Origin: a virus
Lineage: Duplodnaviria; Heunggongvirae; Uroviricota; Caudoviricetes
DNA length: 9,715 nucleotides
Strand: one strand, 5' to 3'
IMG/VR virus record: IMGVR_UViG_2713897054_000020
In this document: in pieces, positions 4,234-9,715 of the stretch
Layout of the letters: every line of letters starts with the position of its first letter
How positions within the stretch are numbered: the stretch's first letter is position 1
The notes under the pieces: generated by a model
The model's input: only the letters and a program-made list of their open reading frames with translations
What the model was told of the DNA's origin: nothing
The model's database searches: none
Program-made: the position numbers and the translations under genes

Positions 4234-4420
4234 TTTTGCGCCTCACTTTTTAAAGAGTCTCGCTTCGTCTCACTTGATATTTTTGATGTTTTTATGTGCA
4301 TGTTTCATAAGGATTTTTTTACTCCTCACTTTTTGGGGTATATATACGTTGAAAAGTGAGGAGTTCAGGGGGTTTTTCGTTCAATTACTCATTGTCCTCA
4401 CTTTTGCGCCTCACTTTTTA
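4229..4420. repeat. putative replication origin: iteron array with an AT-rich inverted-repeat core
   Basis: Two perfect 24-bp direct repeats CTCACTTTTGCGCCTCACTTTTTA at 4229-4252 and 4397-4420. The sub-motif CTCACTT(TT) occurs at least six times on the plus strand and once inverted. A 12-bp inverted repeat CTCCTCACTTTT (4322-4333) / AAAAGTGAGGAG (4351-4362) flanks the AT-rich spacer TGGGGTATATATACGTTG. Sits immediately 3' of the replication helicase gene. Confidence 0.6.
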
Positions 4421-5827
4421 CAGAGGGCCTACATCATCACCGTCGATATAAATAACCCCGTCTTTTTCCAGCTTGCGTAGCCAGCGGCTGAAGTTTTTCA
4501 TTTCGTACCCCAGCTTTTTCATATCGTCACGTAACAGCGGGATCGTGCACTTGTCGCCGTGCTGTGTGCGTGACCGGATACATCCCCATAGCGCAGCATG
4601 ATTCTCCGTCTTGTTGCCAGCCTCTTCGATGCGCTCCAGTTCAACGGGAGGACGCGGCTTATCCACCACCACCAGCGACGTGATTAACTCCCCGTCAGCG
4701 TCGGTAAAAAGCTCCACCACCCGCAAATCATAGGCAGCCTCTTTGAGTTCCTCCGCGTCCTTCATTTTGGTGCATGAGATAACCAGCGCTTCGCTTCCTG
4801 CGTCCTCCCTGCGTATCCGGTATTCAGCGTCCAGTGATGCACGAAATGCACTGGAACCACGCGCCCCCTTTGTTTCATCCTTGCCGGAATGGTGAACCAC
4901 CAGCACCGTAGCCCCTGTGCGCCGTTTAAGCTCGTCACAACCACGGATAAATGCCCCCATGTCGCGGGAGTCATTTTCATCATTGCCGCCAAAGCAACGC
5001 GCCAGCGTGTCCAGAATAATCATGCGAACAGGTTTACCCGTTTCCCTCTCCACCTGACTGGCAGCAATAACCAGTTCATCAACATCAAGCGGGACAGCCG
5101 GAAAGATGGGACGGTTTACCAGATACAGATTTTTCACCTGCTCACCGTGCACAACCTCCCAGGCTTTTACACGACGCGGAACGCCGATACCGCCTTCACC
5201 AACCACATAGAGAACAGCGCCATGCGCCACCCTGCGGCCTCCCCACTGGCGGCCCGTGGAAACGTGACACGCCCACGATCCGGCAAGGAATGATTTATAG
5301 GAACCGCTCGCCCCGTATATGCTGCAAAGCGACGATGCCGGAATAATCCCCTTTACCACGTAATCAAGCTGTGTGTCGTATCCGGTAGATCCAACGCTCA
5401 TCGGTAGCGTGGTTTTTCGCTGGGGAATTTTTTTCATGACCAGGCTTTCCCCGCGTTCCCATGCCTCCCTAAGCCGTGGAAGCTGGTCGCTCCATTCCTC
5501 CAGCAATTCGAAATTTTCAGAAAGTAGCCGCGCCTCCTGGACTCCGGCGATCGCCAGTTTCGTGGCGATGGTTAACAGCTGCGGCTCTTCAATATTTCCG
5601 GCGCGTATCACCGTCGCCCTGTATCGCCCATCATCAACAATCTGGAGGTTATCCAGTTCGCTTAACTGATAACGCCCCAGATAAACGGGAGGGACTGGAT
5701 CGCCTGCTTTTTTGGCCTGTGCAATGATGTAATGCTCTGCGAATGAATGAGCATCAATACCCGCAAAAATAATCGCATCGGTGTATTTATCTTTCGGTAA
5801 TAGTTTTACGTTCGGTGCCAGTTTCAT
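4418..5827 (-). CDS. replication initiator/helicase, RepA/DnaB-like RecA-fold ATPase (AAA_25-type)
   Basis: 469 aa. P-loop-like GASGSYKS, Walker B-like VRMIILDTLARCFGG, and a helicase H4-type motif ATVLVVHHSGKD. An N-terminal domain of about 170 aa and a C-terminal domain of about 70 aa are unassigned. SD AGGGGT; the ATG overlaps the upstream stop (ATGA). Confidence 0.85.
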   Translation of the reverse strand: MKLAPNVKLLPKDKYTDAIIFAGIDAHSFAEHYIIAQAKKAGDPVPPVYLGRYQLSELDNLQIVDDGRYRATVIRAGNIEEPQLLTIATKLAIAGVQEARLLSENFELLEEWSDQLPRLREAWERGESLVMKKIPQRKTTLPMSVGSTGYDTQLDYVVKGIIPASSLCSIYGASGSYKSFLAGSWACHVSTGRQWGGRRVAHGAVLYVVGEGGIGVPRRVKAWEVVHGEQVKNLYLVNRPIFPAVPLDVDELVIAASQVERETGKPVRMIILDTLARCFGGNDENDSRDMGAFIRGCDELKRRTGATVLVVHHSGKDETKGARGSSAFRASLDAEYRIRREDAGSEALVISCTKMKDAEELKEAAYDLRVVELFTDADGELITSLVVVDKPRPPVELERIEEAGNKTENHAALWGCIRSRTQHGDKCTIPLLRDDMKKLGYEMKNFSRWLRKLEKDGVIYIDGDDVGPL

Positions 5828-6363: not shown

Positions 6364-6858
6364 TTAATCCCCGTCCGTCGCTTTTCTTAAAATAACCTCT
6401 GTCACGAAATCAGCATAGTTAGCGGCAATATCAAGAATATTTAGCCCTGTATCTCTGTGCTCATCAGTGCAAAGAAAGAAAAAAGCCACCCGCATAATTT
6501 CAGATATTGACGAAAGCGCATCAGCCGCATCATCAGGAACGCCGGAAAATTCCTGTTTCAGGGAATTAAAACGATCATCACGCATAACCCCCCCATTTTC
6601 ACAATCAGCAATCAGGATAGCTTTGGCCTCATTCAGAGCCATATCAGCACTAAGTTGCATAACCGCCAGCGAATGAGGAACGAAAGCCCCTGCATATTCT
6701 GTTTCACTGGTGGCGTGCTTATGCGCCATGTCAGCAATAACAGAAATATCAATCAGCGCGTGCATCAGCGTAGTGAGCGCGGCGGCTGCTGCGTCCGGTG
6801 TGGTTTTATTGTGCATAGGTTTCTCCCTGGCGAATACGGGCGGCAAATACAGCAACAC
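6364..6858 (-). CDS. hypothetical protein (164 aa as drawn; about 150 aa if translation starts at ATG 6816)
   Basis: First gene of the leftward operon. The internal ATG at 6816-6814 has a better SD (AGGGAG, 6-nt spacing) than the first ATG at 6858. Acidic, Ala-rich. No motif recognised. Confidence 0.55.
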   Translation of the reverse strand: MLLYLPPVFAREKPMHNKTTPDAAAAALTTLMHALIDISVIADMAHKHATSETEYAGAFVPHSLAVMQLSADMALNEAKAILIADCENGGVMRDDRFNSLKQEFSGVPDDAADALSSISEIMRVAFFFLCTDEHRDTGLNILDIAANYADFVTEVILRKATDGD

Positions 6859-7095
6859 AACCGGACGGGCAACGGCTACGCGCTTCGCGTTCCGTCCAGG
6901 CGGTTACGTGGATGATTTGAGATTCTCCGGCACTCAGTGCCAGAAAACGCCACACAAAGGCCGTTTGTGTGTGTACAAGGTGTGGTATATGATTTACAGC
7001 AACCATAACGGCTCCTAGTTTACGTTGTTGGTTAGAAGCCCCGTTACTGCTCCTACAGTGCGGGGTTTCGTCGTTTCTACACCTTGCCTTAATAA

Positions 7096-7148
7096 GGTGT
7101 TGAACACCAATTTAAATCGAGGTGTTAAACACGTCAAGTGTTGAACAC
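7096..7148. promoter_or_regulatory. operator array: three copies of a palindromic site GTGTT(G/A)AACAC
   Basis: GTGTTGAACAC at 7097-7107, GTGTTAAACAC at 7122-7132 and GTGTTGAACAC at 7138-7148. The third overlaps a putative plus-strand -35 TTGAAC (7141-7146); a -10 candidate CATACT lies at 7164-7169. The array sits between the divergent leftward operon and the RHH gene. Confidence 0.55.
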
Positions 7149-7198
7149 TTATTTTTTTTCCTGCATACTGCATTTGTTTTTTATGAGGGGTGCTCAAC

Positions 7199-7378
7199 AT
7201 GGCGACAAAAGCAGTAAACGCAAAATCACAAACAGTTGCGGCAAGGGTTCCACATGAAGTTATGAACAATGTTGAGGCGGTAAAAATGCCCGGCGAAAGT
7301 ACAGGGCAGTTTGTTACAGCTGCATTAAAGCGGGAAGTTGAATACCGCCAGCGCCGCAAGACCAAAGAATCAGAATAA
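7199..7378 (+). CDS. small ribbon-helix-helix (Arc/CopG-like) DNA-binding protein, putative repressor
   Basis: ATG at 7199 with SD GAGGGG 8 nt upstream (the track start at 7190 is a GTG inside the SD). The N-terminal pattern QTVAARVPHEVMNNVEA followed by GESTGQFVTAALKREVE fits a beta-strand/helix/helix RHH fold. Lies directly downstream of the operator array. Confidence 0.6.
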   Translation: MATKAVNAKSQTVAARVPHEVMNNVEAVKMPGESTGQFVTAALKREVEYRQRRKTKESE

Positions 7379-7435: not shown

Positions 7436-7639
7436 ATGACCAACAAAGAATCAACCAATACACCATCGCAAAAAACGAACAGAGAGCACGAAAATATGGC
7501 GCTCGAGCATGAATCAGAAAGATTCGCACCATGCGCTTTTGTCCTTGATGAGTTTCTAAAAAAATATTCACGTTCTGAACGGATGAAAATGGCAGCACAA
7601 TACGGCCCCAACAAGCAAGATAATTGCCCACCAGCCTGA
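7436..7639 (+). CDS. hypothetical small protein (67 aa), uncertain
   Basis: ORF downstream of the RHH gene on the same strand with a weak AGGAA SD, followed by a plus-strand terminator-like hairpin. Polar, low-complexity N-terminus. Could instead be untranslated. Confidence 0.35.
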   Translation: MTNKESTNTPSQKTNREHENMALEHESERFAPCAFVLDEFLKKYSRSERMKMAAQYGPNKQDNCPPA

Positions 7640-7709
7640 TCGCGGTTATCATGCCCGGGCTTATGATTGTTGACACATACGGCGCAGCGGGTTAATTGTT
7701 CAGAAAGGT

Positions 7710-7735
7710 GGCTCCATTTCGGGGCCGCTTTTTTT
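7710..7735 (+). terminator. putative intrinsic terminator of the RHH operon
   Basis: Stem GGCTCC (7710-7715) pairs with GGGGCC (7721-7726) with one G-U pair, then GC and a T7 run (7729-7735). Confidence 0.4.
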
Positions 7736-7760: not shown

Positions 7761-7967
7761 TTAAGCGGTCGTTCCGCGCGCTTTTTGTTCGCGTTCTTTC
7801 ATCCATGCGATTACGTCTTCCTCATACCATCCGCGACGGCGCAAACCGACACGAAAACCCTGCGGGAATTCTCCGGCGTTGATCATGCTTTGCAGCGTGC
7901 TGTCTGCCTTAATGTGGATAAGTTTTTTTACTTCCTGGCGAAAGATGACTTTTTTGATTGCTTCCAT
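7761..7967 (-). CDS. alpA: AlpA-family (excisionase-like HTH) transcriptional regulator
   Basis: 68 aa. SD GAGGT 8 nt upstream of ATG 7967-7965. Sequence block STLQSMINAGEFPQGFRVGLRRRGWYEEDVIAWM follows the AlpA/Xis MerR-like HTH pattern (S.ST, G.FP, G.R, W, DV, W). Confidence 0.8.
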   Translation of the reverse strand: MEAIKKVIFRQEVKKLIHIKADSTLQSMINAGEFPQGFRVGLRRRGWYEEDVIAWMKEREQKARGTTA

Positions 7968-8473: not shown

Positions 8474-9715
8474 CTAAACGGCTCGGATACCCCTTTTACC
8501 ACTGGCGAGGGTTACGCCCGTCGCCGCAGCCTCGACAAATTCGCCCCACCAGCGCATAAGCACGATGCGTTTTTCTATGTAGTTGCTCCGGTTGTATGCC
8601 CGTCTGACTTCGTTGGTGTCGACGTGGGCAAGTGCGGCCTCTATTACGTCTGGCTCAAAGCCTTCTTCGTTCGCTGCTGTGCTGAATATGGCGCGTAATC
8701 CATGAGACACCAGCACGCCAGCGAATCCCATGCGTCGTAATGCTGCGTTAGCGGTCTGGCTGTTCATCGGCTGCTGTGGGTCTTTCAGACTCGGGAAAAC
8801 ATAATCGCGGTGGTGGCTGATTGGTTTCATAGCCTCCAGCACTGCCATAGCCTGGTCACAAAGCGGGATAACGTGGTCGCGGCGCATCTTCATGCGTCCG
8901 GCGGGTATGGTCCAGCGTTGCGCTTCCATGTCGATTTCTTCCCAGCGTGCCGACGATGCTTCAACGGGACGGGTTACGGTCAGTAACTGCCATTCAATCA
9001 GTAATCTGGTCTGCCGTTCTGTTGCCGATACTGATAAAGCCTGCATAAGCTCCGGCAGCTGTTCGGGGCGGATTGTTGGCATATGTTTTTTTACAGGGGA
9101 GGGGAACGCCTTACGCACATTCATAGCCGGATTGGCATCAATCATCCCACTATTGGCGGCGTAATCCATTACCTCATTTATACGCTGTAAAACTCGCTTG
9201 AGCGTTTCCAGGTTGCCACGTTCCTTGATGGGGGTAAGCACCTCAACGAACCTGCGAGCGGTCAGGGTGTCTATTGGCGTGTTGCCGATGAACGGGAATA
9301 CATATTTTTCCAGCGATCGCCAGATGTCTTTAATCGTATTGGGGGCCAGATTCTGGCTGATTTTCACCTGGTACCATGCTGTTGCCACATTTTCGAACGT
9401 GTTCCCTTGTCTTCGGGCCTCTGTCTCTCTTTTTTGCCTCTCGTGGTCCTGCGGGTCAGTTCCGGCACGAATTAACGCCCTGTACTCGCTACGGCGTTTT
9501 CTGGCATCAGCCAGGGAAACATCATCAAGCGATCCAAAACTCAGCAATATTCTTTTTTTGTCCGATGGTCGGTAGTAGGAAAATCTCCAGAGTTTTGATC
9601 CGGACGGTTTGATCAGGAGAAAAAGCCCTCCGCCGTCCTGTAGGGTGTATTCCTTTTCTGCTGGTCTGGCTGCTTTGATCTGTACTGTGGTTAATGGGGG
9701 TGTTTTTCTCGCCAT
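8474..9715 (-). CDS. int: tyrosine site-specific integrase, P4/CP4-57 family
   Basis: 413 aa. The N-terminal arm-binding region LTTVQIKAARPAEKEYTLQDGGGLFLLIKPSGSKLWRFSYY matches the P4-type integrase pattern (DGGGLYL..KP.GSK.WRF.Y). The C-terminal catalytic region carries HGLRA, HVIPLC and a late RRAYNRSNY segment that probably holds the catalytic Tyr. The ATG is the last three bases of the window, so the promoter and attachment site lie outside it. Confidence 0.9.
   Translation of the reverse strand: MARKTPPLTTVQIKAARPAEKEYTLQDGGGLFLLIKPSGSKLWRFSYYRPSDKKRILLSFGSLDDVSLADARKRRSEYRALIRAGTDPQDHERQKRETEARRQGNTFENVATAWYQVKISQNLAPNTIKDIWRSLEKYVFPFIGNTPIDTLTARRFVEVLTPIKERGNLETLKRVLQRINEVMDYAANSGMIDANPAMNVRKAFPSPVKKHMPTIRPEQLPELMQALSVSATERQTRLLIEWQLLTVTRPVEASSARWEEIDMEAQRWTIPAGRMKMRRDHVIPLCDQAMAVLEAMKPISHHRDYVFPSLKDPQQPMNSQTANAALRRMGFAGVLVSHGLRAIFSTAANEEGFEPDVIEAALAHVDTNEVRRAYNRSNYIEKRIVLMRWWGEFVEAAATGVTLASGKRGIRAV

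Follow-up and report, generated by a model that had tools for sequence, protein, structure and literature searches.

A predicted ribbon-helix-helix repressor and its co-varying palindromic operators at the divergent early promoters of cos-type satellites

This analysis concerns a compact regulatory module in viral DNA of 9,715 nucleotides (IMG/VR record IMGVR_UViG_2713897054_000020, Caudoviricetes; this whole stretch is called the window below), where a gene for a small protein with a predicted ribbon-helix-helix (RHH) fold lies divergently from the replication operon of an integrated satellite, with three palindromic sites at the promoters between them. The reading we favour, with a probability of roughly 0.78, is that the protein is an autoregulated repressor that silences the early operon of the satellite, and that it exists in allelic specificity classes, each with its own operator. 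An autoregulated-repressor layout was the core of the original prediction, made from the letters of the window alone, and that interpretation was largely right: the palindromes overlap both divergent promoters, and across 113 loci the operators co-vary with the predicted DNA-reading residues of the RHH protein in about 12 classes, a pattern that the AlpA-like regulator encoded nearby does not follow.

Palindromic operators and the RHH gene

A sequence scan located the three sites, which conform to the motif GTGTT(G/A)AACAC, at the positions first proposed for them, with start-to-start spacings of 25 and 16 bp. Operator O1 (GGTGTTGAACACC, 7096–7108) is a perfect 13-bp palindrome with the core GTGTTGAACAC at 7097–7107, and lies directly 3' of the leftward −10 and over the leftward transcription start predicted from the promoter call. 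O2 (GGTGTTAAACAC, 7121–7132, with the core GTGTTAAACAC at 7122–7132) lies in the spacer separating the −35 from the −10 of the same promoter, and O3 (GTGTTGAACAC, 7138–7148) overlaps the −35 (TTGAAC) of the promoter of the RHH gene. No further match with up to one mismatch is present in the 9715-bp window, the chance expectation being 0.30 matches, and the observed count was reached in none of 200 dinucleotide shuffles. At two mismatches the sole additional match in the region is GTGCTCAACAT (7190–7200), which lies over the RHH start codon, is within chance, and is of doubtful significance.

The leftward promoter (7109–7137, minus strand) was called by a promoter scan as sigma-70-like and consists of TTGACG (7137–7132), a 17-bp spacer and TAAATT (7114–7109). 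It is directed toward an Icd-like (cell-division-inhibitor-like) gene (6806–7006, minus strand), the first of a leftward operon running on to a RepA-type helicase gene (4418–5827, minus strand), so that the region is indeed divergent and faces the replication operon. The rightward promoter of the RHH gene (7141–7169, plus strand) was read by eye as TTGAAC (7141–7146), 17 bp and CATACT (7164–7169). It scores 8 of 12, which is under the threshold of the scan tool and weaker than the leftward promoter, and is supported by the conservation of TATACT in relatives where the window has the −10 element CATACT. Its −35 falls within O3, in agreement with the earlier suggestion that one site covers the putative −35 of the RHH gene.

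With O2 in the leftward spacer and O1 directly after the −10, occupancy of these sites should exclude RNA polymerase. In the proposed mechanism, RHH dimers would recognise the GTGTT(G/A)AACAC palindromes, those on O1 and O2 would keep polymerase from the leftward promoter and hold the Icd-like/replication operon silent, and O3, over the gene's own −35, would bring about negative autoregulation, a role that a site after the rightward −10 would take in most relatives. Binding, and repression as the direction of regulation, are our inference. The protein might instead bind the palindromes in the manner of Cro, or be an activator or timer made after induction, acting in late shut-off of the early operon or stimulating one of the promoters. 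This is unlikely given that O1 and O2 lie at the heart of the leftward promoter (start site and spacer), where sites are typical of repression, that the gene is divergent from a lytic-type operon, as is the case for Stl/Rpr and CI, and that a site over the gene's own promoter (O3, or in relatives the one after the −10) fits a repressor autoregulated at steady state.

The RHH gene (7199–7378, plus strand) starts with ATG at 7199, preceded 8 nt upstream by GAGGGG, and encodes 59 aa. The protein matches the NCBIfam model YlcI_YnfO_N (NF041551) over residues 9–50, scoring 59.6 bits (cutoff 30; E 2.2e-16), and the name given by PGAP agrees. A Pfam search returned no RHH family (CopG/RHH_1, Arc etc.) at E ≤ 1, and a Med10 match was discarded as sub-threshold only; a PDB sequence-profile search and Foldseek found no relatives. 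Its assignment as an RHH protein is a prediction that rests on modelled fold and motifs, not on sequence-family membership, and both of these support the original claim. The AlphaFold monomer (pLDDT 83) has an extended N-terminus followed by two helices, which is the strand-helix-helix topology of about 45 residues seen in the RHH (MetJ/Arc) superfamily. The defining mark of the family is a G-x-S/T/N turn between the helices, and here G32-E33-S34 aligns with G30-R31-S32 of Arc. The hhalign probability against Arc is weak (5%) but the register is sensible, placing T12, A14 and R16 on Arc Q9, N11 and R13, and RVPHEV on RWPREV. Palindromic sites also fit a binder with two-fold symmetry. That alternate residues of the N-terminal strand read bases, as in other RHH proteins, is indicated indirectly by the Arc register, by the hypervariability of residues 11–15, and by the co-variation of these residues with the operators.

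Homologues of the protein form 61 clusters in a search of 5.8 billion proteins, and all organism names given by the source belong to Enterobacterales. In an alignment of 50 homologues, M1, T3, N7, S10, H19, E33, S34, Q37, F38 and E46 are invariant. The motifs NAKS, R16-V17-P18-H19 and G32-E33-S34 are kept, most positions in all sequences and the rest in at least 90%; H19, E33 and S34 occur in 50 of 50, and the remaining RVPH and GES positions in at least 90%. The only hypervariable block is residues 11–15 (QTVAA in the window). Among 50,697 phage records searched with tblastn, a relative turned up in one alone, vB_KppS-Ant, and it was weak; to judge by its length of 16.5 kb, this record is more likely a satellite than a full phage. 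With only this one hit, the 59-aa protein is not a common helper-phage protein at such similarity. One E. coli satellite (L002, 3897–4337) has a second RHH-like gene (MSTHKNERRGNPPFQFRLDPDLREKMEK...) in tandem after the first module. This gene is very divergent (18% identical) and is followed by an open reading frame (ORF) of its own, and upstream of it only weak repeats were found.

Operator classes and their protein partner

The region matches about 1560 of 5426 complete E. coli genomes. The loci gathered were four from E. coli, EcCICFT073 (the model cos-type phage-inducible chromosomal island, PICI, of Gram-negative bacteria), 31 from other genomes and 80 IMG/VR contigs; the 113 loci of the co-variation comparison comprise 33 from complete or draft genomes and the 80 from IMG/VR. 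In these relatives the operators stand at nearly constant distances from the ATG (about −102, −77 and −32), and this placement holds from Escherichia through to Xenorhabdus, Proteus and Pectobacterium. Nearly all relatives have an equivalent of O1 at about −102, and the equivalent of O2 lies at about −77. Most relatives carry a full fourth site just after the rightward −10, about 32 bp before the ATG, which the window lacks, and the extra site at −61 (the position of O3) is seen only in the GTGTTGAACAC class, to which the window belongs.

While positions are stable, the operator sequence varies between loci, and the copies within one locus all change together. About 12 operator types can be distinguished, each paired with one set of residues at positions 11–15 of the RHH protein, and among loci with an intact upstream region there were no exceptions to this pairing. 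Proteins with QT[VIL]AA go with GTGTTGAACAC, those with [KR]KLEA with GTGTCAGCCAC, and those with Q[AS]LK[AS], which include EcCICFT073, with GTGTGGCCCAC. Three further sets, QK[LV]Q[AT], QKIQA and QKMSA, are accompanied by GTGGACTCCAC, CTGGATTCCAG and CTGGCACCCAG, respectively; KR[FI]D[VA] is found with GTGTCGGACAC, KKIDV with GTGTCAGACAC, QSVTA with GTGTCTTACAC, and QKTSV with GTGnnGGACAC. A Klebsiella variant has GTGCACCCCCAC. The leftward −35 next to O2 (CGTCAA in most loci, TTCAA or CTCAA variants in some) and the rightward TATACT are independent of operator class. That the repeats might be a chance or neutral remnant without function finds nothing in its favour beyond their short length, and is effectively refuted by the comparative data, in which positions are kept across genera and the copies change in concert; together with the result of the 200 shuffles this leaves the idea with next to no probability.

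A different binder for the palindromes was also weighed, namely the AlpA-like regulator or another protein of the island or host, such as a replication initiator, with the small ORF as a bystander. AlpA does activate early genes in EcCICFT073, and repeats near replication genes can be iterons. The gene for an AlpA-like helix-turn-helix (HTH) regulator (7761–7967, minus strand, in the same orientation as the leftward operon) is convergent with the RHH gene, and lies convergently downstream of it in nearly all loci. Operator class is, however, uncoupled from AlpA-like sequence in both directions: within one class these proteins can be as little as 21–25% identical, and between different classes they can be 95–98% identical (e.g., L002 and EcCICFT073, or L016 and L031). 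It is likewise uncoupled from the type of replication protein, which within a single class may be a RepA helicase, a toprim primase or a DNA primase. A host factor cannot account for about 12 element-specific variants in one host species, and published work puts the PICI origin downstream of the primase gene (PMC6092414). Another binder is therefore very improbable. The RHH protein is the only consistent partner of the operators and their predicted reader.

The downstream ORF (7436–7639, plus strand) encodes 67 aa without a family match and is probably co-transcribed with the RHH gene. A conserved motif, HESERFAPCAF-x-L-x-x-FLK, is common to the products of this ORF in the window, EcCICFT073, L002 and L004. 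The ORF is missing in most of 33 loci examined, including all Xenorhabdus loci among them and L003 and L005–L007, and by this distribution does not belong to the core of the module. Such a neighbour raises the question of whether the RHH protein could be the antitoxin of a type II toxin–antitoxin pair formed with the 67-aa product, the palindromes serving for autoregulation of that pair only. We rate this very low too: no conserved adjacent toxin gene is present, as most of the loci examined lack the ORF and its product matches no toxin family, and two of the three sites are on the divergent promoter and not on the protein's own.

The same RHH/operator cassette was seen inside very different satellites, represented by L003 (E. 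coli Eco_24-2013), L004 and L005. L003 is a P4-like element that carries epsilon together with a toprim primase and a capsid gene of the P2 family, and others carry BRO-N proteins. This distribution indicates modular exchange of the cassette. Capsid-forming PICIs have the module too, according to a 2026 survey in which YlcI/YnfO appears only under the label 'prophage-associated protein' (PMC13612085).

Silencing, relief and the surrounding element

Two points qualify the repressor interpretation. Operators and variable codons lie within 110 bp of each other and are thus co-inherited, so that their association alone is no proof of contact; the concerted change of three to four copies per locus, and the confinement of variation to the predicted DNA-facing strand, are the stronger evidence. 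The other point is the behaviour of EcCICFT073, where overexpression of AlpA alone, without a helper, induces the island (PMC6092414). In that element AlpA is required for early-gene expression, the early operon being expressed at a low level without it, and alpA is induced by helper phages (PMC6092414); the same AlpA behaviour has been reported for EcCIMP1 (PMC11773190). Because AlpA overexpression suffices for induction, the RHH protein is probably not the only switch. The 'master repressor switch' of the original prediction holds as far as the repressor/operator layout goes; the word 'master', and the idea that the pair senses the helper phage, go beyond what is shown. It is more likely that the RHH protein would act as a basal silencer or immunity determinant that is overridden by AlpA-driven expression.

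The way in which this override might operate is suggested by the terminators. The RHH transcript ends at an intrinsic terminator, a hairpin with a U-run (7702–7735, plus strand; −20.4 kcal/mol, z −4.9), the strength of which depends on G–U pairs; on the minus strand the same sequence forms a weak hairpin of −7.3 kcal/mol, so leftward transcription from alpA would not stop there. Folding analysis found no strong minus-strand terminator between alpA and the leftward operon. Given that AlpA is needed, that helpers induce alpA and that such a terminator is lacking, read-through from the alpA promoter would be the simplest combined model. As we infer it, helper-induced AlpA expression would drive transcription that starts upstream, at the promoter of alpA, passes leftward over the RHH cassette into the operon, bypasses the repressed promoter, runs antisense to the RHH gene and opposes its expression. 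There is no RHH-type operator near alpA, and so the RHH protein does not control that gene.

The leftward transcript begins with a structured 5' leader (7007–7069, minus strand), consisting of one hairpin at about 7039–7065, a conserved single-stranded CUUCUAACC, and a second hairpin at about 7007–7026 that encloses the Shine-Dalgarno sequence. The consensus produced by RNAalifold itself was poor, and a hand-drawn two-hairpin structure was tested instead: among 22 loci, 10 of its 14 pairs show compensatory changes, and the observed score was reached in none of 500 shuffles. The leader may be an element controlling translation or RNA stability of the Icd-like gene. Rfam scans returned no C4, isrK or other credible family, the limit being E ≤ 1 for the whole window and E ≤ 10 for 6780–7220. 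An immunity RNA of the P4 CI type was considered for the leader and dropped, as there is no Rfam match and the leader motif is absent from P4. Also dropped was a terminator-like hairpin inside the Icd-like ORF (6971–6951), considered as an analogue of P4-timm, which folds no better than shuffled sequence (z −0.07).

The satellite itself is nearly complete in the window (9.7 kb; 9715 bp), which is practically identical (reported as 100.0%, with a single-base length difference) to a segment adjoining tRNA-Pro and yejM in E. coli O91 RM7190 and STEC2017-197. An integrase gene (8474–9715, minus strand) stands at one end. Also on the minus strand, the Icd-like gene is followed by small ORFs and by genes for a DUF4222 protein, the RepA-type helicase, a single-stranded DNA-binding protein (SSB), proteins homologous to capsid protein E and decoration protein D of lambda, and a small terminase of the Nu1 type. 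This gene order is that of EcCICFT073, for which capsid and decoration homologues have been described (PMC6092414). The full set seen in such cos-type PICIs is present, that is, integrase, AlpA, small early genes, a primase or helicase, SSB, E-like and D-like homologues and a Nu1-like small terminase, within about 10 kb at a tRNA or chromosomal att site, and it bears out the classification of the element as a cos-type satellite of this kind. A long AT-rich inverted repeat (384–489) between the last ORF (1–282) and the small-terminase gene gave spurious microRNA and XIST matches to Rfam; from where it lies, it may be a terminator or belong to the cos/packaging region.

The same module is found in EcCICFT073. 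In E. coli CFT073 (L038, 7243–8053) the RHH gene, the downstream ORF and the Icd-like gene have the late-added tags C_RS30120, C_RS30800 and C_RS30125, which suggests that these three genes were absent from the original annotation used in experimental papers. Literature searches on YlcI/YnfO, on RHH proteins together with PICIs, and on EcCICFT073 found no description of the module, and the later literature found on Gram-negative PICIs treats AlpA as the only regulator. The Williams lab, in describing what lies between alpA and the replication genes, names immunity RNAs and Bro-N proteins but not the 59-aa protein or any operators (PMC10111431). The module probably supplies the protein repressor that, according to published work, had not been found in Gram-negative PICIs. 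In kind it is a textbook repressor, an RHH protein with palindromic operators, of which this is an uncharacterised member, and it involves no new regulatory principle.

The specificity classes resemble, by analogy, heteroimmune repressor/operator sets. A wider proposal, to which we give somewhat less than even odds, is that the RHH protein is the missing repressor of Gram-negative PICIs and is also present in some P4-like and capsid-forming satellites, that its roughly 12 alleles are heteroimmune classes, and that induction by AlpA comes about through transcription running across the repressed promoter and the repressor gene, not through simple activation. If true, such classes would let several satellites share one cell without cross-regulation. 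The module is a concrete candidate for how these satellites stay silent. Its pairings also amount to a naturally occurring table that sets protein residues against DNA bases in an RHH family, which could be of use in studying or engineering RHH specificity, and the result would help in interpreting co-resident satellites and in designing PICI-based delivery vectors.

Comparison with known systems

Within its own family (NF041551/DUF3950) the module protein is related to the prophage proteins YlcI (DLP12) and YnfO (Qin), for which no function was assigned in the literature found. YlcI of K-12 is 23% identical to the protein of the window, but its gene (L040, 4252–4446, opposite strand) lies just upstream of the Nu1-like nohD of a lambdoid prophage and not at a divergent early promoter, and no matching triple palindrome was evident upstream of it. 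Among plasmid regulators, CopG, Omega and ArtA have the RHH fold as well and act as repressors that occlude promoters from short repeated sites; these are plasmid systems, however, and Omega uses heptad direct repeats.

In phage P22, the immI region has two RHH repressors, Mnt and Arc, at the divergent Pant and Pmnt promoters. Like the module described here, it combines a small RHH protein with symmetric operators over back-to-back promoters and with autoregulation, which for the module is predicted, and the alignment of Arc to the module protein takes in the N-terminal strand of the latter and its RxP and G-x-S motifs. The differences are that the module has three to four separate palindromes of 11–13 bp where immI has one operator of 21 bp, that sequence similarity is marginal, and that the module, in a satellite, is predicted to control an Icd-like gene and a replication operon, whereas immI, in a phage, controls ant.

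The Stl/Rpr repressors of Gram-positive PICIs (SaPIs, the pathogenicity islands of Staphylococcus aureus) are encoded divergently from an excision/replication operon, as is the RHH protein, which would similarly keep its island silent. Divergent layout and promoter-overlapping sites are both present in the window, and the module would control the operon. Stl repressors are large HTH proteins, and helper proteins release them from DNA, while the module protein is a 59-aa RHH protein with no detected homology to them. AlpA is the known activator in the Gram-negative system and SaPIs are without it. The role of an island-silencing repressor has been reported as unassigned in Gram-negative PICIs (PMC6092414).

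Immunity in P4 (CI RNA) and in P1 and P7 (C4 RNA) acts directly upstream of an Icd/Kil-like first gene of an early operon and decides whether that operon is expressed, as is predicted for the module. There it depends on a processed antisense RNA; here it would depend on a protein and DNA operators. P4 has no homologue of the 59-aa protein, no divergent gene at that position and no counterpart of the leader hairpins. Judged by analogy, the module is thus closest in logic to P22 immI and closest in role to Stl/Rpr, and in position it would replace the CI/C4 antisense-RNA immunity.
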